From Candidatus Jordarchaeia archaeon (GTDB taxonomy: Archaea > Asgardarchaeota > Jordiarchaeia > Jordiarchaeales > Jordiarchaeaceae), in contig JAHQXB010000063.1 in the NCBI GenBank assembly GCA_029856435.1, positions 7,609 to 71,608 on the forward strand: a DNA stretch of 64,000 nt, given 5' to 3'. A model generated the notes under the pieces. It was given only the letters and a program-made list of their open reading frames with translations, did no database searches and was not told the origin of the DNA. Positions 3,634 to 53,530 of this stretch are shown here, in pieces (positions within the stretch are counted from its first letter, which is position 1; every line of letters starts with the position of its first letter). The position numbers and the translations under genes were made by a program.

Positions 3634-3719
3634 CTCTATAAATACAAGTAAATTCTGGAATTCAAAGCCATAAAAATTTCAGAGTTTATGGAGAGTTTGA
3701 GGGCAGAAGATGGTTAAAG

Positions 3720-4580: not shown

Positions 4581-4613
4581 ATCAATAAGACATCAAGATG
4601 CCAAGAGTTTAAC

Positions 4614-5765
4614 CTATTTTATGAAGTTTAACTTGAAGGTTTTAGGGGTGGCAAGATATTTTGATATTACAAATATATTTTCGCCAGACTTCAATCCAAC
4701 ATCCTTAAGCCTGAGTTCTTCCCCCAAGGGGAAGTGCTCCCTGTATGCTATTTCGGGGTCGGGAATGGCATATCTTTGGGAAATCTGTACTTTGATGTCA
4801 AAAACCGTAGCATTTGAATCCACGTTCATTTGCTGTGCTTCGTCTCCCAACCCGCAGAGCCAACAGTCAGCTCTTCGCGTCCGAGTCAAGCAATCGAGAC
4901 CCCCGCTGATTCCGTTATATCGAAACATCTCCACACTTCTAGGTAAGCCGAGCAAAACTTTTATTGCCTCTTGGGACTGAATCCCCGCTATTATGGCGTT
5001 CGTAGTTAGGATGGCTGGTAATTTTGGAGCTATCTTTTCCTGTATTTCTTTTGCGAGTTCCTCAGAAACTCCTGGAACTGAGACCAAGTTTTTAAGTTTG
5101 GCGTATTTTAGATCAAGCTCAGTCTTGTAGCCTCTTAAAAATAACTCTTCAACAATATCAAGTGTTAAACCTTTTATTCCGTACTTTTCCAACTCGTTGA
5201 ATAAATCGCGGGGCTTGCGTCTTCTCAAAGAACACCAAACTCTCTGCTTCTCTTTGGGAGGATAACACTCATAACAGGGAGTCACGTAAGGGATTATTAC
5301 ACGTACGTGACCAAAGAAACCATGTGTACCAGCATCAATAAAGGGTTTATTTAGAGACACCGCCACTGAGTTCAGATAACGGCGGCCTTCAAAATTATCC
5401 AAACTACTCAGAAAAATATCAGCTTTCCGATACACATCAATACTAATACACTCTATATTATCATAGTAAGATTCAACTTCTACGTTGGGATTCATTTCAG
5501 TCAAGTTACGTTTAGCAGCCACAACTTTGGGTGAACCGATATCCTGGTCTCTATACAACATTTGCCTACTTAGATTGGAGAGCTCCACAACATCATTATC
5601 TATTATAATTAATTTCCCAACACCCATAAGAATCAAATTTTTTGCCGATTCGCAACCCAGAGCACCCATACCCGCAATTAAAACAGTAGAATTCATCAGT
5701 TTATCCTGATTCCAAGCAACACCCATAACATTCACAAGTTTTTGTCTATGATAACGACCCTCCAT
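4614..5765 (-). CDS. Ubiquitin-activating E1-like enzyme (ThiF/MoeB/Uba family)
   Basis: 383-aa ORF. The nucleotide-binding motif is LIAGMGALGCESAKNLILMGVGKLIIIDNDVVELSNLSRQ. Two CxxC pairs are present (CYEC, CWLC). It is the last gene of the Ubl-E2-E1 string. Confidence 0.85.
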   Translation of the reverse strand: MEGRYHRQKLVNVMGVAWNQDKLMNSTVLIAGMGALGCESAKNLILMGVGKLIIIDNDVVELSNLSRQMLYRDQDIGSPKVVAAKRNLTEMNPNVEVESYYDNIECISIDVYRKADIFLSSLDNFEGRRYLNSVAVSLNKPFIDAGTHGFFGHVRVIIPYVTPCYECYPPKEKQRVWCSLRRRKPRDLFNELEKYGIKGLTLDIVEELFLRGYKTELDLKYAKLKNLVSVPGVSEELAKEIQEKIAPKLPAILTTNAIIAGIQSQEAIKVLLGLPRSVEMFRYNGISGGLDCLTRTRRADCWLCGLGDEAQQMNVDSNATVFDIKVQISQRYAIPDPEIAYREHFPLGEELRLKDVGLKSGENIFVISKYLATPKTFKLNFIK

Positions 5766-5794
5766 GCCAAAACCCTCACAGAAGTTTCACTTTT

Positions 5795-6214
5795 CTACCA
5801 ACCCTGGTTGGCGTAGTTTAGAACATATTCCCGGGCTATTTCAAGAAATTTTTGCGGTTCCCGTCTCTGCTGGTAAGCCGCCTGTGAATTAAGGGGATTA
5901 TCAGGGTTAGGATTGTTCAGCAGCGTCCTCAGAGCTTCTATAACCCCAACAATGTTTGTCTGTGGCTTCCACTCTCTCCCCAATATTGCTATACAAACCG
6001 AAAAAGGCGGCCGATCACCGAAAGCAATATTAGGATGCCATATCCGAGTGTGCCACAAAACTTCCGGTGGCTCAAAAGGAAAACGCCGAGTAATCTTAAT
6101 CTCAACCTTAAACATTCCCCCTTCGTAGGGGGAACCGGCGGAACCGTATATTATTCCGCGCCAATGAGTTAACTTACCATTCACCGAATGGAAGGTAGGC
6201 TCCTCCCTCCTCAT
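5795..6214 (-). CDS. Ubiquitin-conjugating E2 (UBC fold). The annotated ATG probably truncates the N-terminal helix (see finding).
   Basis: 139-aa ORF with WHPNI (HPN motif) and an active-site context FSVCIAIL. Also THWRGIIYGSAGSPYEGGMF, as in canonical E2s. Helix-1-like sequence (SERYWARLALEAQR) is encoded in frame upstream of the ATG but has no start codon. Confidence 0.85.
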   Translation of the reverse strand: MRREEPTFHSVNGKLTHWRGIIYGSAGSPYEGGMFKVEIKITRRFPFEPPEVLWHTRIWHPNIAFGDRPPFSVCIAILGREWKPQTNIVGVIEALRTLLNNPNPDNPLNSQAAYQQRREPQKFLEIAREYVLNYANQGW

Positions 6215-6367
6215 CCGCTGAGCCTCTAATGCGAGCCTAGCCCAGTAGCGTTCCGAATCAAGTTGAGCAGGCGTTTAGGAACCCCCTGAAGAATTATGTT
6301 CTAAGCTTCCATGGTAAGCTAAGACCATGTCGGAATTTTGTGTCGAATAGGAAATCCTTAAATGTTT

Positions 6368-6613
6368 CTAGAAGCCACCTTCAATATCAGAACTGACATA
6401 GAATATTTTATCGCCATCTTGAACTCCAACACTTCCCAGAGGGGCATTATCATCTTGTAGTTCAATACCCCTACAGGTTAGGGTGAGAGCACTTGCTGGA
6501 ACTCCACATTGTTTAGCCACTCTCTCTTTCAGAGACTTCACACTTTCCTCTGGGTCTACCTCCATCTCAAAGGGGGCTTCCTGACCGATAGCAGGTACAA
6601 TTCGGATGAGCAT
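6368..6613 (-). CDS. Ubiquitin-like protein precursor (beta-grasp) with a C-terminal GG followed by one extra residue
   Basis: 81-aa ORF ending ...SSDIEGGF. It is ubiquitin-sized and is the first gene of the Ubl-E2-E1 string. Confidence 0.8.
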   Translation of the reverse strand: MLIRIVPAIGQEAPFEMEVDPEESVKSLKERVAKQCGVPASALTLTCRGIELQDDNAPLGSVGVQDGDKIFYVSSDIEGGF

Positions 6614-6714
6614 TGTTTAACCACCAACAACTTAACTGGTAAGTGTAAATCTTATTATATGTATTCAGAGGAAGATGAACAATTTAAAGTCTTCTCATAG
6701 AAATCTAGCTACTA

Positions 6715-6749
6715 GAAAGACAACCTAGATCACGAGAAAGACAACCTAG
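6715..6749. promoter_or_regulatory. Two direct copies of GAAAGACAACCTAG spaced 21 bp apart, upstream of the Ubl-E2-E1 operon
   Basis: Exact 14-nt copies lie at 6715-6728 and 6736-6749. A partial third copy (acaacct) lies near 6778. They sit ~100-135 bp upstream of the Ubl start (6613, minus strand). Confidence 0.3.
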
Positions 6750-6947
6750 TTTACGGACAGCAACTTCGAATGAAGTACAACCTATAATAAGAGATGTTCT
6801 AATCCGCATTTCCCATTCCTAAAAAGTGAATCTATTTGTGGGTTTCCAGCCGCAAGTATTTGTGAAAAGTAAAAGGGACGTGAAGCGTGAGTCTATCTGT
6901 CCTTTTTTAACGAAAACTAGTTGTGAAGTCTTTTGAAAATTTGTTAT

Positions 6948-7637
6948 TTATTTGGTGAGCCAGCCATATTTTTTGTATGTTTTAATTCCTTCTTTTGATT
7001 TTAGGAATTGAATGAATTTTTTCGCCGTGTCTTTGTTTTTGCAGAAGGCGGTTGCTGCTATTAGGGTGCTTCTGTAAACTTGTGCTTCTCTGGGGATTTC
7101 AATTGCGTCGAATGTTTTGGGGTGTAGAGCTTTGTAGGTATTCCATCCGAATGCCACATCCACCTTTTTTCTGACTATGGAGCCTAGTAGTTCTCCGCAT
7201 CCATCGGCGAAAAGTGTTATGTTTTTTTGTATTTCTTGTGTTAGAGCAGTTTTGCTGGCTATTTCGTCCCAGACTCCCTTTAGACTGTCTACCGTAGATA
7301 TGGCGATTTTGATGTCTTTTTTTGTTAAATCATGGAGGGATCTTATTTTTTTGGGGTTACCTTTCTGTGTTAGGATTACTGATCTTCTGTAGCCTAGGAT
7401 GCTTCTGGTTTCTCTGTCTATTAAATTATTTTTTTGTAGTTCATCCATTATGTATGCTGCTCCACAGGTAAAAACGTCGCAGAGTCCAGTTTCGATTTTG
7501 GGAATTATTTCCGATGGCAGCCCTATGGTATATTTGAGTTCCACGCCACATATTTCTTGAAATCTTTTTCCAGAAATTTTTAGGGGGGTGGCAACATCAC
7601 AGCAAGAACAAATATTTAAAACCTGCTTCTGAGACAA
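6948..7637 (-). CDS. Periplasmic-binding-protein-fold protein (ModA/molybdate-tungstate-binding-like) without an obvious signal peptide
   Basis: 229-aa ORF. General resemblance to type-2 PBP/ModA proteins (DVFTCGAAY..., ILTQKGNPKKIRSLHDL, KIAIS, DVAFGWNTY). The assignment is by motif memory only. Confidence 0.45.
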   Translation of the reverse strand: MSQKQVLNICSCCDVATPLKISGKRFQEICGVELKYTIGLPSEIIPKIETGLCDVFTCGAAYIMDELQKNNLIDRETRSILGYRRSVILTQKGNPKKIRSLHDLTKKDIKIAISTVDSLKGVWDEIASKTALTQEIQKNITLFADGCGELLGSIVRKKVDVAFGWNTYKALHPKTFDAIEIPREAQVYRSTLIAATAFCKNKDTAKKFIQFLKSKEGIKTYKKYGWLTK

Positions 7638-7773
7638 ATATTTTCTCCTCCCTTTTACGGAATGTCAGAGTTATCAATAGTTTTATAATAAAATCTAATA
7701 AAATATGCCTCATATGTGGAAATAATGGATGATGGTGTAGAGTATTTGTGGCTCTGTTATTTGAGAAAAGAAA

Positions 7774-8478
7774 GTGGCGCGTCCGCTTGGGATTGCTCGG
7801 TGGGGAAAACTTATGGTTGATGTTAGGATTTATCCTTTGACTCTTGCTAAGATTATTAGGCATAGTACAATGTTTTCGGGTATAGAAGTGGCAGGTGTTT
7901 TGATTGGGAGATTAGTGAATGGTGTAGTTGAGATTTCGGATTCGGATACCGGTCCGCAGATTGGTACAACGGGCCATGTGAAGCTGGCGAGATATGTGGC
8001 GCCACTCATTGCTGAGAAGCTTCACAGGCAGGGAAGAAGTGATTACATTGTTGGGTGGTATCACTCACACCCGGGATTTGGCTGTTTTCTTTCTCCAATT
8101 GATGTAGACACCCAATCAGGACTCCAGAAGATGTTTTCCAAATGCGTAGCGTTGGTCGTTGACCCTTATGAGTTCATTATTTCGGGTCGCCCACGTGATG
8201 CAAAAATCGAAATGTTTAGAGTTCAAGATGGTAGAATTGTTACACTGGAATATGAGGTTGTTTTTGAGACTGATAAGATTATCAGAAACTTTATTGATAA
8301 CCTAGAGAGAGGCGAGGATCAATACGTAACTTCTTTAGACAAGATTAGGTTAGAGTTTTATGAATGGAACAGAAAGTTGGAAGAAAAAGTAGGTTTTGTT
8401 ACTGAGGAAATCAAACAAATCCGTGAAGCACTGGCAAACATTCTTGAAGCACTAAAGCAAGGTAGACGAATATCATAA
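7774..8478 (+). CDS. JAB1/MPN+ (JAMM) metalloprotease, Rpn11/CSN5-like putative deubiquitinase or Ubl-processing enzyme
   Basis: JAMM motif: EVAGVLIG ... HSHPGFGCFLSPIDV (E, HxH-x7-S-x2-D). The C-terminal ~60 aa are coiled-coil-like. A more likely start is the ATG at 7813 (MVDVRIYP...). Confidence 0.85.
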   Translation: MARPLGIARWGKLMVDVRIYPLTLAKIIRHSTMFSGIEVAGVLIGRLVNGVVEISDSDTGPQIGTTGHVKLARYVAPLIAEKLHRQGRSDYIVGWYHSHPGFGCFLSPIDVDTQSGLQKMFSKCVALVVDPYEFIISGRPRDAKIEMFRVQDGRIVTLEYEVVFETDKIIRNFIDNLERGEDQYVTSLDKIRLEFYEWNRKLEEKVGFVTEEIKQIREALANILEALKQGRRIS

Positions 8479-9828: not shown

Positions 9829-10747
9829 TCACTCTTCGCCGAACAAAATTTTGGATAGTTCTTTTAGTTGTTCTATGCCCCGGATTTCTTTGTCGTAGAG
9901 GGGAACCTCTGTTATGTTAAAGTCGTCGTATAGTTCATGTATTTCTTTAAGGTTCTCTAACTGCATACTTCTACGTGCCCGACAAAAGGGACAGTTAGGT
10001 ATGTCTGGATAAACCATGTTAACGATTATGTGGTCGCAGGGGATTTCGTACTCGTTGAGAGCGGAGAGTAATCTTTCTGTCTCAAAAACAGCCATTGCTT
10101 CAGGTATCATAACAACTACGAAAGCTGTACTCTCCGGATTCGATAGTTCAGCCCGAGCCACATCAATGGTAGTCTTCAGTTTTTCCAAAACTTCCATACT
10201 GCGATCAACTTCACCGCCCTTGCCGATTAATTTTTTAAAGAGTCCCGCTAGTCGTCCAAAGTATTCCCTTATTTTTAGCATGTTAATAACCCAGCCGCTG
10301 AGTACATCTGGCAGCGATAAGAGCCTTAAGGTGTGTCCCGTTGGGGCAGTATCAAATATTACGAGGTCATACTCAGGATTTTCGATGTATTCAAGTACCT
10401 TAGCAAACGCTAAGGCCTCGTCTGCTCCTGGAGGAGTCATACCAGTTAAGCCCCCCATACTCTCCAGTAGTGATTGGGCCTGAGGCTCGGAAAAATCTCC
10501 TTGCTCCAGATTTTTCTTGTAATCCTCAAAGGCTTTATGAGGGTCAATCTCTAATCCGTAGAGATTTTTTACTCCCTTAATTTTCTTAATTTTTGGACCT
10601 ATGTGTTGGTCAAAACTATCACTTAGGCTATGGGCAGGGTCTGTACTAATGATAAGGGTTTTGAGTCCATATTCCGCTGCCCAAATAGCTGCAGCAGCCG
10701 AGCAACTGGTCTTTCCTACTCCCCCTTTTGAGGGACTAGTTAAACAT
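9829..10747 (-). CDS. Get3/ArsA-family ATPase (TRC40-like). The 5' end is anomalous (see finding).
   Basis: The track ORF 9829-10458 contains DTAPTGHTLRLL and a CPFC (CxxC) motif. My translation upstream in the same frame gives LCLTSPSKGGVGKTSCSAAAAIWAAEYGLKTLIISTDPAHSLSDSF, which is the P-loop and switch region. No ATG/GTG/TTG lies in that frame after an in-frame TAG (10750-10752). An SD-preceded ATG at 10745-10747 is out of frame. Confidence 0.8.
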
Positions 10748-10998
10748 AACTAATCTTTCCTCCGAAGAGTAGGAATTTTACTTGCCTCTCTTTTAGTAGA
10801 TCGGCTATTGTCATTGCTTACTTCCACCTGTTTTTCAGTTATGATTATGATTGGTGACATATTTACACATTTATGCTTGAATTTAAGTTTTATTCATTAG
10901 ATTCTACCTGTTTTGAGAATTAATTTTTGACCTATTACCTTGAATCGGAGATTTACAATTTATAAAGGTTGAACTTATTTGAAATCCCTGTATTTATC

Positions 10999-18788: not shown

Positions 18789-19307
18789 ATGGGTGAGGAA
18801 CCCCGGGTTGTTAAAATTTTGGTCACAGGACCTTACTCCTCTGGAAAAAGTACAGTGGTCAGCAAACTCTGCAAAGATGCAGTAAGCATAGATGCGCTTC
18901 AGACAACTGTTGGTTTTGATTTTGGTTCCAGATACGAGGAAGTCAATTTTTTGGATTTGAAGATTTTTGGAACGCCCGGACAAGAGAGGTTCAAATTTTT
19001 ACAAGAGATTTTAGCTAAGGGGAGTGCGGGTATTTTGTTAGTGGTGGATAGTACTTCTCCTGAAAATGTGGATTTAGCGAAAAATATTCTAGTGAGGATA
19101 AGGAAGGAGCTTTCAAAGAAGGTACCTGTTGTTATTCTTGCTAACAAACAGGATTTGGTAGGGGCCTTAAGCCCCGAGGAAGTTAGAAAAAAGATGGGAG
19201 TTTCGCGCAATGTCCCAGTCATAGGCACCGTGGCTCCAGAATCCATTGGTCTAAAAGAAGCTATTACAACTTTAATCAAACTAATGTTAAAGGCGGAAAA
19301 ACAGTAG
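18789..19307 (+). CDS. Small Ras-superfamily GTPase (MglA/Arf-like)
   Basis: G1 is GPYSSGKST, the switch I Thr lies in LQTTVGF, G3 is GTPGQERF and G4 is ANKQDL. 172 aa. Confidence 0.8.
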   Translation: MGEEPRVVKILVTGPYSSGKSTVVSKLCKDAVSIDALQTTVGFDFGSRYEEVNFLDLKIFGTPGQERFKFLQEILAKGSAGILLVVDSTSPENVDLAKNILVRIRKELSKKVPVVILANKQDLVGALSPEEVRKKMGVSRNVPVIGTVAPESIGLKEAITTLIKLMLKAEKQ

Positions 19308-19385
19308 ACGTAAATTAGAACTATTACTTAACTGTAAATTTGTTTTATGATGGTTTTTATTGTGTAATTCTACTGTTTTTGGATT

Positions 19386-20084
19386 CTATATTGCGGGTTT
19401 TCCACATTTTTTGCAGTACCTTGCTTTTGGGGGCAATCTTGATCCACAGTATATGCAGAAGGAAAATTCGTCGTCGTTTTCTGAGAATAGTGTGGTGCTC
19501 CCATAGTTTTGTGGATAGTTTGATTCGTTTTGATTCATTTCTTCAGAGTGGTTAAAAATGTCAGATATGGATTCTGTGGTGTGGCTTCCTTTTTCTTTGG
19601 GAGCGGGTGGGATTGAGTTGTGCTCGGTGTTTTCTGCATTTTCGAATAGGTCTGACGCTGTGATTGGTTTATTGCGGTAGGGGTATGGTTTGGCGGATTC
19701 TTTGGGTTCGCAGTATCGAGGCCCGAGGTTATTAATGTCCAGACCTTTTGAGTATTCTATGAATTTATTGTGCAAGTATGTTTTTAATCGAAAATAGTCT
19801 TCTTTAGATAAGCCCAGTAGTTCAAGTGCTCTATCTCTGTTTTCGCATGGTTTTTCTAAGCTGCAGCAGTAGGCTAAGCTACCATAACAGGTGGTTGCCA
19901 TTGCTTGTTCTTGTGGACTTTTAAATATGGGGGGTATGCGGGCACCACCAATTATTAGGACGCTCCCCTCTTCTACCTTTATGTCTGCGAAGCCTTCTGT
20001 TATTAGAGCTTGTAAAACTTGGTTTGCAGGGTAGACTCTGCCACCAATAACGATGAACCCCTCAGCCTTAGGCGCCCTTTCCAT
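19386..20084 (-). CDS. Hypothetical protein with a C-terminal zinc ribbon
   Basis: 232-aa ORF. The C-terminus is CIYCGSRLPPKARYCKKCG. The N-terminal domain is unrecognised. Confidence 0.4.
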   Translation of the reverse strand: MERAPKAEGFIVIGGRVYPANQVLQALITEGFADIKVEEGSVLIIGGARIPPIFKSPQEQAMATTCYGSLAYCCSLEKPCENRDRALELLGLSKEDYFRLKTYLHNKFIEYSKGLDINNLGPRYCEPKESAKPYPYRNKPITASDLFENAENTEHNSIPPAPKEKGSHTTESISDIFNHSEEMNQNESNYPQNYGSTTLFSENDDEFSFCIYCGSRLPPKARYCKKCGKPAI

Positions 20085-20256
20085 GCGTATCCATCCAGAG
20101 TTTAAAAGTATATTTGAAAACAGCTGTTTTAAGCAGTATTAACATTTTTACGCTTCAAATAGCGGTTCTTAAAATATTTTTTAATGTCCATATTAATAAT
20201 TGTAAATATTTTCCACGTATATTGGTTTAGCTAGTTTTTAATTAAAGGCTAGATGT

Positions 20257-20787
20257 TCATCCGCAAGGTGCTTCGGAGAGAATTATTTCTTCCCTTTTTT
20301 TAGATGTTTTCCTTTTTCTGACCATATTTCTGTTATTAATTTTTTCAGTTTTTCCCGATGGGCAGTTGTGCTTTTCGGGTAGTCTATGTTCGGCGCAGTA
20401 GTATCCGCCGCAGCGTTTACATTTGAAGGTTAAGGGAGTTATGGCCAAGCAGTAGTTGCAAGTTCCGCTGGCATATCCTAAGCGTGTCACCGTTATTTCT
20501 TCGAATTTCACCTTTTTGCCTAAGAGGAGGTATAGTCTTATTAAGATTTTTTTTGCTATTTCTTCGCACTCCTCTTTAGAAATACGCTCTTCTGGAATTA
20601 TTATGTTTATTTTATCTCCGTCCACGATGAGAGTGAGGTCTACAATTCGTCCATTGTGTTCTATGCTTCCCCGGGCAATATTTTGGCCAATAATACTTAA
20701 AGCCATTTCTGAGGTTAATCTCCGGAAGATTACTTGATTTAAGCCATTAATTAGCGCCTGAAAAATTTGATTACTCATACTTTTCAC
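20257..20787 (-). CDS. AN1-type zinc finger protein
   Basis: The C-terminus CNYCLAITPLTFKCKRCGGYYCAEHRLPEKHNC fits the AN1 pattern C-x2-C-x9-12-C-x2-C-x4-C-x2-H-x5-H-x-C. Confidence 0.7.
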   Translation of the reverse strand: MKSMSNQIFQALINGLNQVIFRRLTSEMALSIIGQNIARGSIEHNGRIVDLTLIVDGDKINIIIPEERISKEECEEIAKKILIRLYLLLGKKVKFEEITVTRLGYASGTCNYCLAITPLTFKCKRCGGYYCAEHRLPEKHNCPSGKTEKINNRNMVRKRKTSKKREEIILSEAPCG

Positions 20788-21046
20788 CCAAATTTAGCTC
20801 TTTGAAATAAAAGAGCCACTTAAAGTTTATTAAGTAATCCCAAAAAAATATATCCTGACGCTTACGCAAAAATAAATTCTAGCTATTGGATTTTAGTTAA
20901 ATATTTTATTTACTTGTGTTAACATATGTTTTTTCGGGGTACTAATTTACACTAGTTGGGCTTTTTTTATGCCCACATCAAAAGTTTTAATATGTTAGGT
21001 TAGTAGATATTCTGTAGAGAAAAAGTGAAAGGGGCTGTTAAAAGCG

Positions 21047-21841
21047 TTGTCCAGCAGCAATTTTGAACTAACCCTGGCACGGGAAACTCAACTAATGTAT
21101 CAGAGAACTCGCGGTTTTGAGCCAGTTAAAGGCGATCTTACCCGTTGGAGAGGCGAAATCGCCGGTAGAGGCGAATTCCGAGGACTTAAATTTGAGGTGG
21201 AAATTAGGGTTCCTCCCACATTCCCAATAGATCCTCCTCAAGTGTACATGATTTCTCCCACTGAGCACCCTAATGTAGATATTGAAACGGGAAGAGTTCA
21301 ACTGAATATTTTGGAGCACTGGAGACCGGAATACCACCTTTATCATGTAGTAAACACCTTGAAGGGTGCTTTTGCGAGGATCCCTCCACGTCCAGCAACA
21401 AGTCGAGTTAGATTTGGAAAAGAGGCTCCTAAGGTGACTTTAACACTGGTTGGGAAAGAGGATAAGACCGAGGAGGGAGAAGTAACTAGCTCTGAGGCCG
21501 CTTCAGAATTATCTGAGGGTGAGTCGGAAATCCAGAAACTTAGACGCTTGCTCCAGGAACGCGAGGAAGAAATAGCCATGCTACGTGGCAGATTGTCCGC
21601 TCACAATGTACCAGAAGTGGCTCAGGAGAGCGAGTCTACGTCTCTTCCTGGGGATCCCGCGTTTCGTGAAGTTCTGGATGTTGAGAGCGAGAAAATAGCT
21701 ATTGAGGACTTGATCAGGACACTTGAAGAAAAATTTGAAGCGGGGGAAGTAGGTCCAACCGAGTATGCTAAGCTATATAAGAGGTATAAGAAACAGCTGT
21801 ACATAGTAAACAAGAGACTGGAGAAGCTTTCGGCTAGGTAA
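21047..21841 (+). CDS. ESCRT-I Vps23/Tsg101-like protein: UEV (catalytically inactive E2 variant) domain plus coiled-coil stalk
   Basis: TTG start. A UBC fold with HPNV, but the active-site Cys position reads GRVQLNIL (no Cys). An acidic linker and a long coiled coil follow. It sits directly upstream of the Vps28-like gene. Confidence 0.7.
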   Translation: MSSSNFELTLARETQLMYQRTRGFEPVKGDLTRWRGEIAGRGEFRGLKFEVEIRVPPTFPIDPPQVYMISPTEHPNVDIETGRVQLNILEHWRPEYHLYHVVNTLKGAFARIPPRPATSRVRFGKEAPKVTLTLVGKEDKTEEGEVTSSEAASELSEGESEIQKLRRLLQEREEEIAMLRGRLSAHNVPEVAQESESTSLPGDPAFREVLDVESEKIAIEDLIRTLEEKFEAGEVGPTEYAKLYKRYKKQLYIVNKRLEKLSAR

Positions 21842-21864
21842 TCCGCGAGGATGGAGGATAAAAA

Positions 21865-22533
21865 ATGAAGACTGCAGAAAAATCTAGAGGGAAACAATCG
21901 AAGAACGATTTGGAAGAACATTTGGAATTAGAGGCGGAACTGTACTCTTGCATAGCTACTCTGGATATGCTGGGTAAAAATTATGATAATGGTTTAATTG
22001 ATGCCTCCACCTACAGCCGCCAAATGAGAGCCTACATCCAAAAAATTATCGACGTACGTAAAAAATTGGAAGAAAAAGGTTTTGATCTAACCAAGTTTAT
22101 AGAGCAAGAAAAAATCATAGAAAATTATCCCAACGCTGCGGTGAAGCTAAGAATTGTTAAATCCGATGAAACTGTTATGAGACCAGAGGAAGAGATACCC
22201 TTAGAAATAGTTAAGTTCTCACCAGCAAAATTAGCCACGGAAACAGCTGACCTTGTAACAAACTTCATCACATTAATAGACTGCGTCCAATTAGGAGACT
22301 ATGCCCGGGTGGATAACATAGTTCCCATAATGGATGACATAATACTCCTCATGGAAAACTACACAGGACTGAATGACAAGAACTACTGGGTTTACAAAGA
22401 GATAACCGCTTGGCGTGACAAACTCAAAAACGAGCCTCCAGACCTTGTGATTGACTCCGAAGACGCAAAAAAAATAGAGTACGACGCAGTAAGGTGGTTT
22501 AAAGACTTCCGCCAAAGAATAAGACAATTATAG
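21865..22533 (+). CDS. ESCRT-I Vps28-like protein
   Basis: The N-terminal region AELYSCIATLDMLGKNYDNGLIDASTYSRQMRAYIQK resembles the Vps28 core motif (LYAII.T.E.LEKAY.RD.I...EY) recalled from eukaryotic Vps28. The C-terminal half is helical. Confidence 0.65.
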   Translation: MKTAEKSRGKQSKNDLEEHLELEAELYSCIATLDMLGKNYDNGLIDASTYSRQMRAYIQKIIDVRKKLEEKGFDLTKFIEQEKIIENYPNAAVKLRIVKSDETVMRPEEEIPLEIVKFSPAKLATETADLVTNFITLIDCVQLGDYARVDNIVPIMDDIILLMENYTGLNDKNYWVYKEITAWRDKLKNEPPDLVIDSEDAKKIEYDAVRWFKDFRQRIRQL

Positions 22534-22551
22534 AAGAGGAGCCATAAAAAG

Positions 22552-23286
22552 ATGGGAATACGGGAATTACGCGACCGGATGGAGAAAAAAAAGTACATGC
22601 AAAAAAAGGCCACAGAATTCAAATTGGAGGAAATAAAAAGCGATTTGGAAACCGCAACAGAAACAAAAGAGAAACTGGAAGAAATCGCTAGAAAATATGG
22701 AGTCATCATAGCTACCAGTCCCAAACTACAGGATGAAATTGAAAGAATCAGAAAACAGTACGGAATACCCAACGAATCCATAATCACCCAAATAATTTCC
22801 GAAGAAGAAGTACTTAAAAGGGGAACAATGGGAATAGGAACAAAAATCGACCACGAAAAACTGGGAATGCTACTCTATCAAAGAGCCCTGCTTAAACGCA
22901 AAGAAAACGGAGGAATAATGACCTTCGCAGAAGCCTACCTACTAACAAACACGGGGAAACTCGCCCAAAAACTTGAAAACAAAGACATTGAAAAAGCAGT
23001 AAAAATACTTGAGAAAAACAAACTCATACCAGGAATACGCCAACTGAAAAGCGGAGTAAAAATAATAAGCTTCTTCCCCATAGAACTAACCGACGACCAA
23101 AACGAAGTACTAAGCATAGCAAGTAGAAGCGGAAGCGTCACCCTAGAAGAAATAATGCTAAAAACAGGTTGGACAAAAACCCGCGCACAAAGCGTACTAC
23201 AAACCCTAGAAGAAGAAGGAATAACCAGAAAAGACAAAAGCTACGCCCACGGAGAAAAATACTACTTCCCAGGATTCGTGCACTAA
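22552..23286 (+). CDS. ESCRT-II EAP30-family (Vps22/Vps36-like) protein with tandem winged helices
   Basis: An N-terminal basic helix, then GGIMTFAEAYLL... and a second wH (SGSVTLEEIMLKTGWTKTRAQSVLQTLEEEGI). It lies in a string with the Vps23-like and Vps28-like genes. Confidence 0.6.
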   Translation: MGIRELRDRMEKKKYMQKKATEFKLEEIKSDLETATETKEKLEEIARKYGVIIATSPKLQDEIERIRKQYGIPNESIITQIISEEEVLKRGTMGIGTKIDHEKLGMLLYQRALLKRKENGGIMTFAEAYLLTNTGKLAQKLENKDIEKAVKILEKNKLIPGIRQLKSGVKIISFFPIELTDDQNEVLSIASRSGSVTLEEIMLKTGWTKTRAQSVLQTLEEEGITRKDKSYAHGEKYYFPGFVH

Positions 23287-25188: not shown

Positions 25189-25769
25189 TTTTTAAGTCCT
25201 CCTTCCTAAGTTGGACTTTCTTCTAAAATTTTTGTTTCACTTATATAAGATTATCTATTTACAATTGTATAGTATTACGACAAACGCCGAAGCGAACCAA
25301 GAAAGGGAGAGTATGGCTTTAGCCAAGGGGAATTAAGAATATTCAAAAAAATTTTTTATTGATATTAGAAATTAAGTCAAAAAAGGTGATTTAACTAATA
25401 ATATGAGAATAAGCCTTGTTAGCGGGGAAAATATATAAAAAATTATTATTTTAAATTATTTTTATATATATTAATAATTGAATAACTATTTTTATTTGAA
25501 AAAATATAAATATTAAGTCAAAATTGTCAAAAAAATTCAAAAGAGGGACAGAAGCGATTTAACCAACGAAAATTGTCGTAAGAATTCTGTTTAATTGACA
25601 AAACCGTTAAAAGAAAAAACCAAACATATAATTTAATGGTTTAAACAAATAACTTTTAAAGATAAACAAAAGCACGTATATAAAAGCCAACTAAACGCCC
25701 CCAAAAAAGCCCTAAAACGCGAAAAAGAAAAGATTCATCCCCAGAAAAGGGAAAAGCAACGTAGAAACA

Positions 25770-28700
25770 GTGGTTGAAATGAAAAACAGGAAAAAAGCTA
25801 CAGTAGCACTCATACTTTGCGCAATACTCTTCTTTACCACGGCAGTCACACTTACCAATATGATACCTTTAGCACTCCCAACTAGCCAGAATAATCCTCC
25901 CCCACCGAAGGAAAACGGAGCTTATGCAATAATCCAGATAAATGGAATATATTACAATGTAACCTGGTTTGAAATAAACAACGAAACCATGAACCAAACA
26001 ATCGAAGACAGCATCGTAGGCACAAATAACTACAGTCTTAACGTCAGCTGGAACAATAATGTTAATTGTTCAGTTGCCATGTCTTTCAACACCACGAATG
26101 ATACAATATATTTCAACGGCGTCCAACTATATATAGGGTATAATAATTCTCCACCAGCTCTCAGGGTGGAGCTAAGAAACGGAACCCAAGAGAACTCAAA
26201 ATGGGTACCAAGCAACGAAACCATAACACACAAAGAATACAGTAGTAGCAATTTTACTCAAGAGGGAAGTTGGAATACTTTACTAAATGAGACATCCATA
26301 AGACTTGTCCCATTACATACCTATTTCATACTGCTCAGGTTGGATGACACTACAGGTGAGGATAATAGTAGTTATTACTATTGGCGGTGTACTCCAGATA
26401 GCGGTAGTGATAGTGATGGTGTCGATGAGGGAAACGCACTGGCCCTAGGATTTAAAGATATAAGCGATTTAAATAACTCTGCTCTTTGGGCTGGCTGCAG
26501 TGATGATTATGACTGCTGGATGATTGTGAATTTCACGAAGCTTCAATACACTCTAAGCCTACAGCTTCCTGTGAATTGGACGCTGAGTTACCTTATGGTG
26601 GATGTTTTCAACAGTACCGGATCTTTCTTTTATCACATTTCGGATAGTGTCTCGGGGAACATTACTGGGGGTACAGGGAGCTTCAATGTTACTCTGCCTG
26701 ATGGCGATAGACTGTATCTTGCAGTTATTAAATTTACAGACATACGTCCAATTTCGTGGTTAACCGTAATTGAAGATACGAGGAATTCTGATGGCTACGC
26801 CCACACTGTAGGAAATATGAGTGAAGCTCAAAGATTTAGGTTGCCACACGACTCAAACAATCTCTCAGTGCAAATATTGATACGCAACACGGGCTTGACA
26901 GAGAATCTCATAGCGGAGATATGGAATGCCACGTTCGTTGAGTCAGTGGGTAGCTATAACCTTACAGGGAAAGTAGTTGAGTTGGATGTGCCATACTGGA
27001 ACGTTAATTCAGACTATAATTGGTATACCCTCAACTTTGAAGGCTACTTCTTGGAAGGGGACTATTTTCTAGTGATTCATACGAAGGACTGGGCGGGCGA
27101 TCCAAGTAGCGGTTTGTTTTACGATTGGGCAAGTCGTACTAGCTTTTATGAGATTCCCCCATTAGAAGGCTATGAAATATGGACTTCACAGGATAACCGC
27201 AACAATTGGAACTGGCAGGATATGCGAGACCCTTACGGTCACAGGTACTGGCATTGTATGAAGGTGGAGTCGTACAATTCAACGGACACAAGGAACATTA
27301 GTATCTGGATTAATGACAAGCTGGTTGGCAACAATTGGGTGTGGAATGATACAGTTTGGATACCGATACAAAAGACTCAGGGTGATAATGTCACCTTCAC
27401 CGTAACCAGTAATATAGACTTTGAGTATAGTTTAGACTATGACATGTATTACTATAATTATAGCTATGATTTGAATAATGAAACGCAGTTCTACGTTAAC
27501 AATTATTCCATGAGCAACAGCACCCAAGGCTATTTCGCCCAGTACTTTACCAGCAGCCAGCTGGGATACAACAGTAGCAAGGGACTGGTTAACCTGACTT
27601 TCAAGGCTTGGAACATAACCAGTAAGGAGTGGATAGTTACAAGCATTAACGCCACAATAAGCGCCTCAATGTATTACACAGAAAACATTTCGGTGCCATC
27701 TGCGACAGAACTAAACTACACTTATATACATAGCAGTGACGCTACCATTTCCCTTTCACAAGAACCCCTACACATCGACTACTCTGACCTAAATGTATGC
27801 GCAGTTGACATGGTTCAACTTAATGGCACAATCCTCTATGGCAACTGGACAAACAACACCTTAACCAGTAAGGTAACAGTGCTCAAAAACGCTTTTAACG
27901 ATACATTAATAGGGCAAGAAATCTTGGCAGGGGACAATGTAACAATCACCGTGAACTTTTACTCCATGGTAAATATTGAAACCCCAATCCTACCCTACAT
28001 TGGTGAGCCAGCCACATTAAATATTACGAATGTAATCGATACTCCTGACTACTTGAACGTAACCATAATAAGACCCAACGGCACAATACAAACGTGTCAA
28101 GGAACCAAGGTGAATAATGAGAACTGGAGCATTAGTTTCACACCTGAAGAAGCCGGAAAATACATTGCGTCAATCACCACGCAATCCACAGGTGAAAATA
28201 TAATAAGGAGAGAAGTGGCAAATCAAAGTTTAGAACAATATTACTATGTATTCAATGTATACCAATTAGGGGTGGGACTTAATAAACCTGACATTGGCGC
28301 CAAGGAAACTCTAAGCCTAGGAGTACCATATACGTTACAGATATGGGTAAGGTACTTACCATTCAACTCCTCGGAAACCCCGCAGGTTAATGTAAGTAGC
28401 ATAACAGTTTTCCTGAATGGTAGTAAAACAATAAATGATCCAGAATTCAATACTTTAACGGGATTCTGGGAGCTTACAATAATATGGAACAGCCTCTGTA
28501 ACCTAAACATCACAGTGAACGTTACTGATGATAACAATAGGATTATCGTCGAAAGTTTTGTAGTTCAAGTGGTCTTCCCAAAACCACCATCACCTATTCC
28601 CATATTATCATTGATGACAGCATATGCGGCCGTGAGTCAGTTCAATATGGACACACTGGCAAGAATCGCCACTATCGTATTCTGGCTACTAATAGTAGTT

Positions 28701-28772
28701 CTCATCTTTATGCGCGTCTTTTATCCAGATACTCTAATCAAAATCCACAAAAAGCTACTGAGAAAAACATGA
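25770..28772 (+). CDS. Large secreted surface protein with very many N-x-S/T sequons and a C-terminal TM anchor (candidate S-layer or surface glycoprotein)
   Basis: 1000-aa ORF. It has an N-terminal signal/TM segment (VALILCAILFFTTAVTL) and a C-terminal TM (IATIVFWLLIVVLIF) followed by basic residues. Sequons occur throughout (NVT, NET, NQT, NYS, NVS, NCS, NTT, NDT ...). Confidence 0.6.
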   Translation: MVEMKNRKKATVALILCAILFFTTAVTLTNMIPLALPTSQNNPPPPKENGAYAIIQINGIYYNVTWFEINNETMNQTIEDSIVGTNNYSLNVSWNNNVNCSVAMSFNTTNDTIYFNGVQLYIGYNNSPPALRVELRNGTQENSKWVPSNETITHKEYSSSNFTQEGSWNTLLNETSIRLVPLHTYFILLRLDDTTGEDNSSYYYWRCTPDSGSDSDGVDEGNALALGFKDISDLNNSALWAGCSDDYDCWMIVNFTKLQYTLSLQLPVNWTLSYLMVDVFNSTGSFFYHISDSVSGNITGGTGSFNVTLPDGDRLYLAVIKFTDIRPISWLTVIEDTRNSDGYAHTVGNMSEAQRFRLPHDSNNLSVQILIRNTGLTENLIAEIWNATFVESVGSYNLTGKVVELDVPYWNVNSDYNWYTLNFEGYFLEGDYFLVIHTKDWAGDPSSGLFYDWASRTSFYEIPPLEGYEIWTSQDNRNNWNWQDMRDPYGHRYWHCMKVESYNSTDTRNISIWINDKLVGNNWVWNDTVWIPIQKTQGDNVTFTVTSNIDFEYSLDYDMYYYNYSYDLNNETQFYVNNYSMSNSTQGYFAQYFTSSQLGYNSSKGLVNLTFKAWNITSKEWIVTSINATISASMYYTENISVPSATELNYTYIHSSDATISLSQEPLHIDYSDLNVCAVDMVQLNGTILYGNWTNNTLTSKVTVLKNAFNDTLIGQEILAGDNVTITVNFYSMVNIETPILPYIGEPATLNITNVIDTPDYLNVTIIRPNGTIQTCQGTKVNNENWSISFTPEEAGKYIASITTQSTGENIIRREVANQSLEQYYYVFNVYQLGVGLNKPDIGAKETLSLGVPYTLQIWVRYLPFNSSETPQVNVSSITVFLNGSKTINDPEFNTLTGFWELTIIWNSLCNLNITVNVTDDNNRIIVESFVVQVVFPKPPSPIPILSLMTAYAAVSQFNMDTLARIATIVFWLLIVVLIFMRVFYPDTLIKIHKKLLRKT

Positions 28773-40003: not shown

Positions 40004-41374
40004 ATGACACAAACGCAAAAAGGAGAAAAATTTGAAGTCAAAGACCTAAAACTAGCACCAAGCGGACGAGCAACAATTGAGTGGGCAGAATCAAGAATGC
40101 CCGTGCTCATGCAAATAAGAGAGAGGTTCCGAAAAGAAAAACCGCTTAAAAACACCATAGTAGGAGCATGCCTCCATGTAACAAAAGAAACAGCAGTTCT
40201 TGCAAAAACCCTGAAAGCTGGAGGTGCAGAAGTCTACCTCTGTGCCTCAAACCCCCTATCAACACAGGACCATGTAGCCGCCGCACTGGTAGAAGAAGGA
40301 ATAAACACATTCGCCTGGAAAGGCATGGACTACGAAGGCTACTACCGAGCAATAGCCAACGTTATTAAGGGAGAACCGAACATCACACTAGACGACGGCG
40401 CCGACCTAGTATCAACCTTAATCAAACTCAAAAGAGGAGAAACCGGCGAGGAAATCAAGGTAGTTAAGAAAATTCTTGGAAGCCGAACAGACTGGGCGGA
40501 CAAAGTATGGGCCGGAGCCGAGGAGACCACAACGGGCGTAATCCGCCTTAGAGCCATGGCAAAAGATAACGTGCTACTATACCCAATTATAGCTACAAAT
40601 GATACCCCCACAAAATGGGAAACATAAACACCCCCCGTGTTTAAGCCCAAATTTGACAACCTGTGGGGAACTGGGCAAAGCACCATAGACGGCATACTGA
40701 GAGCAACAGCAGACCTTATCGCGGGCAAAATTTTTGTAGTCGCAGGGTATGGCCATTGCGGTAGAGGCGTAGCGCTAAGAGCTAAGGGGCTAGGAGCGAG
40801 AAGAGTCATCATATGCGAGATAAATCCACATCGAGCCTTAACAGCCGCCTTAGAGGGTATGGAAGTAATGCCCATGAGGGAAGCCGCAGAGGTGGGAGAC
40901 ATTTTCGTAACCGCCACAGGATGCAAGAACGTCATAAATGCAGAACATATGAAAAAGATGAAAAACGGAGCAGTGATGTGTAACACAGGTCACTTTAATG
41001 TGGAAATAAATATACCTGACTTGGAGAAAATCAGCGTTAGCAAGAGAGAGATAAGACCACTAGTCGATGAGTACACACTGGAGGATGGAAGAAAAATCTA
41101 CCTACTAGCCCAAGGCAGGCTTGTGAATCTAGCATGTGCTGAGGGACACCCAAGCGAAGTTATGGACATGAGCTTTTCTGATCAGGCTTTAGCTGTGGAG
41201 TGGATTGTTAAGAATAGGGATAAGCTGTCTGGGATGGGTAGTGTGGTTTTGGATATTCCTGAAGAGATTGATAGGACTGTTGCAGAATTGAAGTGTAAGG
41301 CTATGGGTCTTAGATTAGATGTTTTGACCCCTGAGCAGGAAGCTTATTTGTCGGGCTGGGCTGAAGGAACCTAG
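40004..41374 (+). CDS. ahcY: S-adenosyl-L-homocysteine hydrolase, interrupted by a 30-nt in-frame insertion carrying a TAA
   Basis: Track ORFs 40004-40627 and 40637-41374 are in the same frame. Together they give a full AhcY ([17 protein letters not shown], ...[36 protein letters not shown]). Confidence 0.9.
40616..40645 (+). other. 30-nt insertion with an in-frame TAA and an internal hairpin inside ahcY (candidate mRNA intron; the junction is ambiguous by 1-2 nt)
   Basis: tgggaaacataaacaccccccgtgtttaag. Removing it gives NDTPTK-PK-FDN, which is the canonical ND..TK..FDN spacing. Helices tggg/ccca, caaa/tttg and aaacat/gtgttt, with an aag bulge, are visible. Confidence 0.55.
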
Positions 41375-42055: not shown

Positions 42056-43174
42056 ATGGATACTGAGGAAAAGGTTCAGCGTGTCTTGCGTGGCTTGAGT
42101 GAGGTTATTACTGTTGAGGATTTGCGCAATTTGTTTGAGGTAGATAACCACCCTAAGGCTTACATAGGTGTTGAGCCTTCTGGATAAACCTTTTAGGCTT
42201 TCTAGGGTTCCAGAATATTTCATTTGGGCTGGGTGGTTTGGGCCTGGAAGGTTCAGGATTTGGTTCTTTGTGATGTGGATATGCATGTTCTCGAAGCGAC
42301 TTGGCATGCTAAGATTAATGACAAGTTTGGTGGAAACATGGATACCATACACACCTGTGCAAAGTATATTGAGCACTGTTTACAAGCGTTGGGTGTAGAT
42401 ATTGGTAGGGTTCGTTTTCCAAAGGCTGAGGATCTTATGGATAGTTTGGATTATTGGGCCACAGTGATAAACATTGCTAAAAACACTACGCTGGCACGTA
42501 TTAAGAGAGCTATGAGTATTATGGGCCGCAAAGTAGACGATGCTGAATCGGATTATTCAAAAACGCTTTATCCTTGCATACAAGTGGCTGACATCTTATA
42601 TGCTGGTTTTAAGCTGTGTCTGGGTGGGACTGACCAGAGAAGAGCTCACATATTGGCGAGGGAGTTGGCTCCTAAGTTCGGCTTGGATTGGAAGCCGGTA
42701 GCGATTCACACTCCTCTCCTCATAGGCTTGGAGGGATTATCGAGGATGGAGGTTGAAGGTGTGAATGAGGATGTTTTAATGGAGGCCAAGATGTCGAAAT
42801 CCAAACCTCAAACAGCAATTTTTATACATGATAAGCCAGAGGAAATCAGGAGTAAAATCTCTGCTGCCTTTTGCCCACCTAAACAGGTAGAATTCAATCC
42901 AATAATTGAAATAAATAGGCTTCTTCTTTTTTCCAGAGAAGGTTTCATTCTTCATGTGGAACGTGAGGAAAAATTTGGAGGGGATGTAGATTTTGAGAGC
43001 TTTGATGAATTGAAATCTGCCTACAGCGCCGGTAATCTCCATCCTCTGGACTTGAAACGGGCTACTGCAGAGGCACTCATTGCACTGCTGAAAAATGTTA
43101 GACAACATTTTGAAAAGAATAGTGAAGCCCGTAACCTTTTAGAAACATTAAAAAAGGCTACAGTGACCCGGTAA
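42056..43174 (+). CDS. tyrS: Tyrosyl-tRNA synthetase (archaeal type), interrupted by a 30-nt in-frame insertion carrying three stops
   Basis: A 43-codon ORF from ATG 42056 (MDTEEKVQRVL...KAYIGVEPSG) is in the same frame as track ORF 42224-43174 (KMSKS, FGGDV, LHPLDLKRATAEALI). By memory it is collinear with M. jannaschii TyrRS. Confidence 0.9.
42185..42214 (+). other. 30-nt insertion with three in-frame stops inside tyrS (candidate mRNA intron)
   Basis: taaaccttttaggctttctagggttccaga. Removing it gives EPSG-IF-HLGW. The upstream 6 nt tctgga (42179-42184) are complementary to the last 6 nt, tccaga (42209-42214). Confidence 0.6.
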
Positions 43175-43186
43175 TAAACCTATGAC

Positions 43187-43306
43187 TTTCTCATTAATTT
43201 TTTCCTAAACCTCTTCTTAACCGGGGTTATTTAAGGCTTCTTTCCCCAAAAAAAGGTGGAAAAAACCATATTTTCTGGAAGCGAAAAGGAAAAAATTTAG
43301 TTGGAA
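43187..43306. repeat. Dispersed ~120-bp intergenic repeat, copy B, with 11-nt inverted termini
   Basis: It matches the reverse complement of 3516-3633. The internal inverted termini are aattttttcct (43196-43206) and aggaaaaaatt (43287-43297). Confidence 0.6.
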
Positions 43307-43423
43307 AATTTATAGTAGGGATACTTCCACGCAGGATCATAAGAAAACTTTATTTTGTTCGGGTTTAACATTGTGTTCAAGAGAATGTCGTTTGTTTCTC
43401 TTTGCTAGTTTGGATGGCTGATT

Positions 43424-52380: not shown

Positions 52381-53530
52381 TTAGGATACTGGACGCCAGA
52401 TAATTCCTAGTTCATCCGCTGTTTTGTATGCTTCCTCCATTTCGTGGCTAGTAACCCTTCTACATATGTCTGCATATTCCTTCCTTCTTGGCACCTCGTG
52501 TGTTGGGTGATACTGTTCCATTATGTTAACTAAAGCCTTGGGGCAATTTTTAGCCACCCATTCAAGAACCGGTTTGGTGCAACACTCAATGTGTCCCGGT
52601 AAAACTAGGTGCCTTATTATCATGCCAGATGTTCCTGGTTCCACAGTTTCATCATAGGCCATTTTATGATTTCTTGAAACAATTTCCCAGTAATTAGAAA
52701 CTTTACTCAACCTTTCTGCGCATTGATCATTCCCATATTTAAAGTCGGGGAGCCAGAAATCCATAACGTCTAATAAAAGCTTCATACATTCTTTGGAACA
52801 GTACATATTAGAATTCCATAGTTGTACAATGTTTGTTTTAGTTTCCCTTACGCCCTTTAAAATGTTGTAGGTGTTTGGAGTTGGTTCTCCACCCACATAA
52901 TTTATGTTTCTTGCACCTTCCCTCTTTAGATCTCTTGAGATTCGTGCAAGGCTCTCACCCGAAGTTTCTATACCGTTTTTTGGATTTGTGGAAATGTCAT
53001 AGTTCTGACAAAACACGCATTTAAAAGTGCAACTGGAGAAGAAGAATGCACCGTAAGAGCCTTAACTCTTAAGCGTTTGTGCCTGAAGGAACTAAAGGGG
53101 CCTCTTCTCCAGTATGTATGAATGCTGAGGATACATAAGACTCTCTGCCAAGTTTACAAAATCCTTTTTCACCCTCCAGTCTATTAGCCCCACACCGTCT
53201 TTCACAGAAATGACACTGCGATAGAATCCTTCTTGCTAGTTCCACCTTAGCATCTAAATAAGAAATCTTCGGCGAATCAATGTTTCCCAGATCCAGTTCA
53301 CCTGCATCAATCCGCCTCAAGACACTCCTAAAAACACCACTTATTCTATCATGCTCATCCCAAAGCTTGCCCAGCTCCGCATCTAGCTCAACATCTACAC
53401 CTACTTTTAAAGCTATCATAAACTTAGCATAAAGCCTATCATTGAATACCTCATAGTACCTCCAAAGCCTCTCACGAACTGTACCGTCATCCCAAACACG
53501 GTAAGCATCTGGGCGAATTAGCTTCCACAT
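52381..53530 (-). CDS. PflX-type radical SAM protein, interrupted by a 13-nt hairpin insertion just upstream of the CxxxCxxC motif
   Basis: Track ORFs 53069-53530 (…CHFCERRCGANR…HTGEEAPLVPSGTNA*) and 52381-53016 belong to one protein. My translation upstream of 53016 gives GSYGAFFFSSCTFKCVFCQNYDIS in the +1 frame. Confidence 0.8.
53062..53074 (-). other. 13-nt palindromic insertion carrying two TAA codons inside the radical SAM gene (candidate mini-intron)
   Basis: The minus strand reads ACAAAC|GCTTAAGAGTTAA|GGCTCT. The stem is CTTAA/TTAAG with loop GAG. Removing it gives ...PSGTN-GSYGAFFFSSC..., which restores the frame and the usual G-xx-GSG-x-FF spacing. The junction is ambiguous by 1 nt. 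Confidence 0.5.

Follow-up and report, generated by a model that had tools for sequence, protein, structure and literature searches.

The 64,000-nucleotide stretch analysed here (hereafter the window; positions 7,609 to 71,608 of contig JAHQXB010000063.1, assembly GCA_029856435.1) derives from a Candidatus Jordarchaeia archaeon of the Asgardarchaeota and carries on its forward strand, at 42056-43174, an interrupted tyrS gene for tyrosyl-tRNA synthetase (TyrRS). The single frame of this gene is broken by three in-frame stops shortly 5' of the HIGH motif: a 43-codon open reading frame (ORF; MDTEE...KAYIGVEPSG) runs from the ATG at 42056 and is closed by the TAA at 42185-42187, two further stops follow (TAG at 42194 and TAG at 42203), and the frame then resumes and codes for the remainder of an archaeal-type TyrRS as far as the TAA at 43172-43174. 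Translated without splicing, the region reads ...KAYIGVEPSG-stop-TF-stop-AF-stop-GSRIFHLGW.... A first-pass annotation, made from the letters alone, had observed that the ORFs at 42056-42187 and 42224-43174 share a frame and jointly encode a TyrRS, with which both the coordinates and profile matching agree. With 30 nt deleted, the translation scores 415.6 bits against NCBIfam PRK08560 (tyrosine--tRNA ligase; cutoff 220) in one stretch that spans positions 1-339 of the 342 in the profile, contains both class I signatures (HLGW, the H-[IVL]-G-W form also carried by homologs of its clade, and KMSKS) and can be aligned with the intron-less homolog P0012 across residues 5-362. The other aminoacyl-tRNA synthetase (aaRS) genes of the window are uninterrupted.

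In our reading, to which we assign a probability of roughly 0.87, the tyrS pre-mRNA of this Jordarchaeia/Freyarchaeia (Asgard) archaeon contains a bulge-helix-bulge (BHB) intron of the archaeal type at positions 42186-42215. The BHB geometry comprises an outer helix, a 4-bp central helix, a 3-nt bulge and an inner helix arranged with two-fold symmetry, and cleavage falls between bulge residues 2 and 3, as given for the introns of cbf5 (PMC2738675). In the tyrS transcript, the CUGG at the end of exon 1 would pair with the CCAG at the 3' end of the intron to form the central helix (H2), on which a hairpin folded from the 5' part of the intron (H3) would stack, leaving two 3-nt bulges (AUA and AAU), one at either end. 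Each bulge would be cut between its second and third nucleotides by EndA, the tRNA splicing endonuclease, and an RtcB-type ligase would seal the exons into a UUA leucine codon, so that the spliced mRNA would code for a complete TyrRS (...EPSG-LF-HLGW...); unspliced mRNA would terminate at codon 44. We infer from the sequence both that the transcript is indeed cleaved and ligated and that these enzymes are responsible.

The cut rule places the intron at 42186-42215, with cuts at 42185/42186 and 42215/42216. The 30-nt excision by which the first-pass annotation had restored TyrRS therefore stands, but its boundaries (42185-42214) move by 1 nt, and its junction, EPSG-IF-HLGW with an AUA isoleucine codon, has to be replaced: U joined to UA gives UUA (Leu) and EPSG-LF-HLGW. 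Homologs favour the same correction, as the residue after EPSG is Leu in 102 of 108 intron-less full-length TyrRS homologs (LF in 78, LV in 22) and Ile in none, and among the 24 possible 30-nt deletions in tyrS the removal of 42186-42215 alone yields LF. The predicted UUA codon is absent from the DNA because it is made only by joining 42185 to 42216. The complementarity noted earlier between tctgga (42179-42184) and tccaga (42209-42214) is real, and a helix formed by it would bring the junctions together; its 6 bp, however, consist of the central 4-bp helix of the BHB and an A-U pair on either side of it, and these two pairs must open for the bulges to form. A BHB-motif scan, proposed in the same annotation, found the motif in the exact register needed for a 30-nt excision. 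For an intron length of 30 nt, in-register motifs occur at a frequency of 1.7e-3 per window position when H3 has at least 4 bp and 3.6e-4 when it has at least 6 bp.

Judged by its predicted structure, the tyrS motif corresponds to a relaxed BHB rather than to the strict hBHBh' form. Relaxed motifs are cleaved by broad-specificity EndAs only, and Asgard archaea in general possess an (alpha-beta)2 EndA whose specificity is made broad by its L1 loop (PMC5829648), so that the relaxed tyrS motif fits an enzyme of the Asgard type. Introns occur in 92-95% of tRNA genes of Freyarchaeia and Atabeyarchaeia, many of them non-canonical in position (PMC11291895). An analogy with tRNA introns of this very window, drawn in the first-pass annotation, could not be verified: no tRNA gene was detected in the 64 kb by ARAGORN with and without intron mode, by Rfam (gathering threshold and E<=1) or by a T-loop pattern search, which may in part reflect the blindness of these tools to heavily intron-disrupted tRNA genes.

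Comparison of tyrS among relatives was based on 18 Jordarchaeia/Freyarchaeia loci from metagenome-assembled genomes (MAGs), obtained by a genome scan and contig look-ups in NCBI, JGI, ENA and Logan, stemming from independent samples and assemblers and comprising 9 distinct intron variants. All 18 loci carry the insertion at the identical site, including that of CP147778.1, a complete and curated chromosome of Ca. Freyarchaeum deiterrae; three loci (L001-L003) match the window at ~95% at the nucleotide level. A heimdallarchaeal tyrS ortholog lacks the insertion and reads EPSG-LF-HVGW. The alignment of orthologs proposed at first pass thus gave the same site throughout the relatives and the expected spacing outside them. 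Intron length is 30 nt in 5 of the 9 variants and 31 nt in 4, and exon 2 is out of frame with exon 1 in precisely the 31-nt loci, so that no model with a translated insertion can hold. The ends and flanks are invariant (CUGG-AYA-ARCC ... GGUU-CCAG-AAU-AUUUCA); the interior varies by substitutions and one 1-nt indel, and within H3 the pairing UAG/CUA has become CAG/CUG in L034. Four of the 9 variants have CAA in place of UAA at the first stop, and the stops themselves are therefore not what is conserved.

Exon 1 compared with that of the window gives ratios of nonsynonymous to synonymous divergence (dN/dS) of 0.08-0.36 at dS 0.37-1.5 across the 9 variants. These substitution patterns indicate that both tyrS exons are under purifying selection, which for exon 1 implies that it is translated within a functional protein. 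In a protein search, the eleven closest TyrRS homologs (80-96% identity) are all annotated at ~302-336 aa with the N-terminus missing, and homologs at <=57% identity are full length. RNA-level excision by a splicing endonuclease acting on a BHB intron, the mechanism favoured in the first-pass annotation, thus finds support in the register of the motif, the cut rule, the non-triplet lengths in relatives and the selection on exon 1.

Interrupted genes in the window and its relatives

Three further genes of the window carry candidate introns of the same architecture (Table 1). The adenosylhomocysteinase gene ahcY (40004-41374), which adjoins tyrS, holds an in-frame block containing stops within the catalytic TK..FDN motif. 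The junction predicted for it, WE, is also the consensus among homologs, and the closest intron-less homologs (74% identity, one of them from a Jordarchaeales MAG) read TKWEFDN; deleting merely the stop-containing codons would yield PK, not WE. The ahcY intron measures 27, 28, 29, 29 and 30 nt in relatives, its structure is 95% paired compared with <=45% in slid controls, and an A.A mismatch in the 9-bp hairpin of the window is replaced by A-U in L005 and L028 and by G-C in L004.

Three additional introns, all obeying the cut rule, interrupt ahcY in relatives. Two of their sites are uninterrupted in the window and one lies in a diverged region beside site C of L004. EGH/PSEV is the unique possible junction for the 31-nt intron, which lies 7 nt upstream of the 191-nt site, the sequences of the two introns being unrelated; these neighbouring introns resemble independent colonisation of adjacent sites. 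The 191-nt intron of L004 has no Rfam match.

For arsA/get3, the Pfam match starts upstream of any start codon, and exon 1 consists of 19 codons from the ATG at 10814. The predicted intron, frameshifting at 29 nt, lies within the Walker A loop and has a perfect BHB motif; splicing would produce FGGK-GGVGKT, and the Pfam score is 323 bits for the spliced product against 310 bits otherwise. The gene is full length in relatives at 79-87% identity, the complete Ca. Freyarchaeum deiterrae genome included. At the DNA level, arsA of L039 (the complete genome) and L041 lacks the intron and encodes a contiguous F-G-G-K-G-G-V-G-K-T, equal to the predicted junction; such junction-matching, intron-less alleles come from relatives at 83-87% identity, and the intron is present in L040, a 97% relative. 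By this comparison of alleles, arsA is precisely polymorphic for the presence of the intron, which was gained recently. The exon codons that would pair with the 3' end of the arsA intron (10757-10762) are GGA GGA in the intron-bearing alleles and GGT GGC or GGT GGG in the intron-less ones (L039 and L041), the exon bases of the central helix thus differing according to intron presence.

The fourth case is a PflX-like radical SAM gene (53530-52381), for which a 153-aa 'hypothetical' ORF upstream represents exon 1. Its intron lies slightly upstream of the CxxxCxxC cluster motif, and the predicted product reads PSGT-I-FFSSCTFKCVFCQN (PSGT-I-FFSSC), the junction residue in homologs being Ile in 34, Val in 17 and Phe in 2 of 57.

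Four genes of the window are interrupted alike, which on the sequence evidence makes this a class of element and not a one-off, and seven independent in-register motifs at a low background are not attributable to chance. At each of the four introns of the window, the cut rule gives the junction found in the protein consensus, and for the three introns of relatives it is compatible with the uninterrupted sequence of the window. The interrupted genes amount to ~4 of roughly 70 in the window; Pfam annotation of the remaining coding segments revealed no further interrupted gene, nor did synteny with five relatives over ~35 kb. Twenty suspicious neighbouring ORFs were rejected as split genes after Pfam showed them to be separate intact genes, the exception being a segment without a hit that proved to be pflX exon 1, and a short upstream exon of the E2 (UQ_con) gene was dropped as relatives call the same 139-aa ORF. 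Structure-only scans for BHB motifs that fuse ORFs returned mostly chance hits and at first missed the known cases, and were given confirmatory use only; a screen for ORF pairs in the same frame caught tyrS and ahcY and missed the frameshifting arsA and pflX, and the homolog search of the representative library used exon 2 alone as query.

All seven introns (those of the window and of L004/L028) sit inside the most conserved catalytic motif of their host: HIGH, TK/FDN, EETTTG, EGHPSE, Walker A and the radical-SAM cluster region. This siting is reminiscent of the site preference of inteins and homing introns.

Beyond the window, EndA-dependent mini-introns of a uniform ~30 nt may be proliferating in the protein genes of Jordarchaeia/Freyarchaeia as well as in their tRNAs, with a preference for catalytic motifs and with gain and loss ongoing; extrapolation from 4 per 64 kb (~6% of genes) would give ~200 per 3.6-Mb genome. 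We consider the chances of this wider proposal to be evenly balanced. Signs of gain and loss are the arsA intron, present at 97% and absent at 79-87% identity, and the two distinct ahcY introns 7 nt apart. If the proposal is true, mRNA splicing would be routine and essential in a prokaryote near the eukaryotic stem, and these archaea would offer a natural system for studying intron invasion of coding genes.

Alternative explanations

Several observations weigh against a BHB intron in tyrS. The motif has three unpaired nucleotides (AAU) 3' of H2b and then an outer helix of a single base pair, against 0-3 bp for the remaining introns, the local fold is about as stable as shuffled sequences (z = -0.32), and the minimum-free-energy (MFE) fold of the region is shifted by one A-U pair, U42209 pairing with A42184 instead of A42187. 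The MFE register (5 bp, bulge UAA) was itself ruled out as a splicing register, since excision would then be 28 nt and out of frame. By pair counts H2 and the outer part of H3 are 100% paired but invariant, so that covariation is weak, the sequences being few and closely related; in the ahcY hairpin there is one double-sided change, and the observed score was reached by 69 of 500 shuffles. Among database sequences, no full-length TyrRS above 57% identity was found in the protein database, and the sole match to the spliced tyrS junction in metagenome and metatranscriptome contigs is an unrelated chance match. With formal covariation weak, the case rests on the evidence from register, junction, length and alleles.

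The same database results are what would be expected of decaying pseudogenes, or of split polypeptides (43 aa plus 316 aa) from which the insertion is never removed: the spliced product was not found in the databases searched, and gene callers annotate the C-terminal ORF alone in all relatives. We nevertheless regard this explanation as very unlikely. Purifying selection acts on both exons, with dS reaching 1.5, and the insertion is kept at one exact site with invariant ends. The breaks fall within the HIGH motif and, after a 19-aa exon, within the Walker A loop of arsA, and such fragments are not plausibly functional; four housekeeping genes are hit alike, and the other aaRS genes of the window are intact.

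Even less credence is due to translational bypassing, in which the ribosome would leave the uncut RNA at GGA, hop ~30 nt across the hairpin and resume. The gap is short, contains a hairpin and in the window opens with a stop straight after the GGA glycine codon, a superficial resemblance to gene 60 of phage T4. Take-off and landing codons are, however, unmatched (GGA, and AGA ahead of the resumption point), the stop after take-off is CAA in 4 of the 9 variants, and bypassing could yield G-I-F only, against the family consensus G-L-F. It also cannot account for the 56-nt and 191-nt insertions of the same architecture in relatives, and the BHB register predicts every junction.

Read-through or recoding of the stops, with ten extra codons translated, UAA and UAG read as amino acids and TyrRS carrying a 10-residue insert, is scarcely credible. 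In the window the insertion does keep the frame, and recoding of a stop codon for selenocysteine is documented in Jordarchaeia, but Jordarchaeia recode UGA only and pyrrolysine at UAG is confined to Sifarchaeia (PMC9723677), the stops here being UAA and UAG. Four of the 9 tyrS variants are 31 nt long and shift the frame, the related insertions measure 27, 28, 29 and 30 nt in ahcY, 29 nt in arsA and 31 nt in pflX, and an insert would disrupt the EPSG-xx-HxG spacing kept in 108 homologs. A self-splicing group I or II intron was rejected at 30 nt, against >200 nt expected, and with no Rfam match. A sequencing or assembly artefact, a concern raised at first pass for which only the general prior that MAGs contain errors speaks, is of negligible probability, the insertion being present in all 18 loci of independent samples and assemblers, including a manually curated, long-read-validated complete chromosome (PMC11291895).

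Other features of the window

Two inverted copies of a ~111-130-nt element lie at 3507-3640 and 43179-43340 (arms 3526-3636 and 43184-43294, 84% identical). The copies are intergenic, one of them following immediately on the tyrS stop codon, and relatives of 92-95% identity lack both; the element is a mobile element resembling miniature inverted-repeat transposable elements (MITE-like), recently inserted. The gene for the beta subunit of phenylalanyl-tRNA synthetase (58210-56513, reverse strand) has no ATG, GTG or TTG ahead of its B1 domain, and an ATT 8 nt downstream of a GGAGG is start-like, so that it may have non-canonical ATT initiation or, alternatively, a short upstream exon that went undetected. 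Eukaryote-like gene clusters of the Asgard type occupy 2718-8478 and 18789-23286 (Table 1), and a 1000-aa ORF at 25716-28769 on the forward strand has good coding statistics and no Pfam match. Neither ARAGORN nor Infernal found a tRNA, rRNA or other Rfam family in the 64 kb, the Rfam search (gathering threshold and E<=1) returning nothing but one chance miRNA hit.

Table 1. Features of the tyrS locus, the related introns and other genes. Coordinates are those of the window unless a relative's locus is named; a slash within a bulge or motif marks the predicted cut.
Feature	Position	Strand	Description
tyrS exon 1	42056-42185	+	43 codons MDTEE...VEPSG plus U, base 1 of the junction Leu codon
H2a, 5' strand of the central 4-bp helix	42180-42183	+	CUGG, in exon 1; invariant in 9/9 variants, synonymous positions included
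5' bulge	42184-42186	+	AUA; predicted cleavage 42185/42186; ACA in 4 variants, abolishing the first stop
tyrS BHB mini-intron (predicted)	42186-42215	+	30 nt, AAACCUUUUAGGCUUUCUAGGGUUCCAGAA
Intron hairpin H3	42187-42209	+	AACCUU (42187-92) / AGGGUU (42204-09), 6 bp, 11-nt loop
H2b, 3' strand of the central helix	42210-42213	+	CCAG at the intron 3' end; invariant
3' bulge	42214-42216	+	AAU; predicted cleavage 42215/42216; outer closing helix 1 bp
tyrS exon 2	42216-43174	+	UA ends the Leu codon; then FHLGW...KMSKS...; stop TAA 43172-43174
Predicted spliced-junction peptides			GVEPSGLFHLGW, TPTKWEFDNLWG, FLLFGGKGGVGK, LVPSGTIFFSSC
ahcY BHB mini-intron (predicted)	40622-40651	+	30 nt; exons 40004-40621, 40652-41374; UGGG AA/A hairpin CCCA AA/U
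arsA/get3 BHB mini-intron (predicted)	10728-10756	-	29 nt; exon 1 10814-10757, exon 2 10727-9829; GAGG AA/A, 9-bp hairpin, CCUC AA/A
PflX-like radical SAM BHB mini-intron (predicted)	53046-53076	-	31 nt; exon 1 53530-53077, exon 2 53045-52381; GCAC AA/A hairpin GUGC AU/U
Extra ahcY intron (relatives)	L004 2231-2286		56 nt, in EETTTG/I; L004/L029
Extra ahcY intron (relatives)	L004 2904-3094		191 nt, in EGHPS/E; L004/L029/L030
Extra ahcY intron (relatives)	L028 about 3279-3309		31 nt, in EGH/PSE; L027/L028
E1/ThiF	4614-5765		
E2	5795-6214		
Ubiquitin-like protein	6371-6616		
RING proteins			
JAB deubiquitinase	7774-8478		
Arf/Ras-like small GTPase	18789-19307		
ESCRT-I/II-like trio	21047-23286		UEV/Vps23-like, Vps28, EAP30

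Significance and relation to known systems

These introns would extend the cbf5-type class of mechanism to an Asgard archaeon and to no fewer than four of its housekeeping genes, a normally essential aaRS among them, and would imply obligatory mRNA splicing in a prokaryote with presumed transcription-translation coupling. Public annotations truncate or fragment such genes, with TyrRS at ~313 aa and adenosylhomocysteinase in 2-4 pieces, and this misannotation affects completeness estimates, metabolic reconstruction and phylogenomic markers. Intron gain, insertion-site bias and the substrate range of EndA and RtcB become testable.

The closest known system is the cbf5 pre-mRNA intron of Crenarchaeota (Aeropyrum, Sulfolobus and Desulfurococcales; PMC2738675), which has the same predicted cut between bulge nucleotides 2 and 3. 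It likewise sits at a catalytic-motif codon, in hosts with a hetero-oligomeric, broad-specificity EndA, and has been gained and lost between related lineages. The differences lie in the host gene (the catalytic Asp codon of cbf5, against tyrS, ahcY, arsA/get3 and a radical SAM gene), in the host lineage (Crenarchaeota, against Jordarchaeia/Freyarchaeia of the Asgard archaea) and in number, a single gene per genome being affected in the one case and several genes per 64 kb, with up to three introns in one relative's gene, in the other. Splicing has been shown experimentally for cbf5, whereas we infer it here from sequence. Work on the cbf5 intron is reportedly due to Watanabe (2002) and Yoshinari (2006) as well as Yokobori (2009). 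That BHB introns in mRNA are known essentially for cbf5 only, as the first-pass annotation held, agrees with the literature searched: in the full texts covered, which do not extend to all journals, protein-coding BHB introns, documented since 2002, are reported for crenarchaeal cbf5 alone, EndA papers as late as 2025 citing no other case, and the papers on these Asgard genomes mention tRNA introns and not introns in protein genes.

Non-canonical archaeal tRNA introns (Thermoproteales; Freyarchaeia and Atabeyarchaeia; PMC11291895) follow the same BHB or relaxed-BHB logic, are similarly small and presumably depend on the same enzymes. In contrast to a tRNA, an mRNA host must keep its reading frame and create a junction codon, and because the introns of the window would lie in mRNA, their outer helix (0-3 bp) cannot come from a tRNA stem. 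The unconventional HAC1/XBP1 splicing of eukaryotes (PMC8718801) similarly removes a short mRNA intron at stem-loops independently of the spliceosome, with a tRNA-type ligase (RtcB in metazoa); it differs in using the Ire1 endonuclease and another motif, and in being regulatory and limited to a single gene, and the introns of the window give no sign of regulation. Bypass elements (T4 gene 60 and the byps of yeast mitochondria) are likewise short, stop-bearing, hairpin-forming insertions in essential coding sequence that are absent from the protein, but they depend on take-off and landing codons that match, and they stay in the RNA, features that the predicted introns do not have. The kind of element is a known one; what appears new is to find it in Asgard archaea, in tyrS and further housekeeping genes, at such density and with gain and loss that can be seen.

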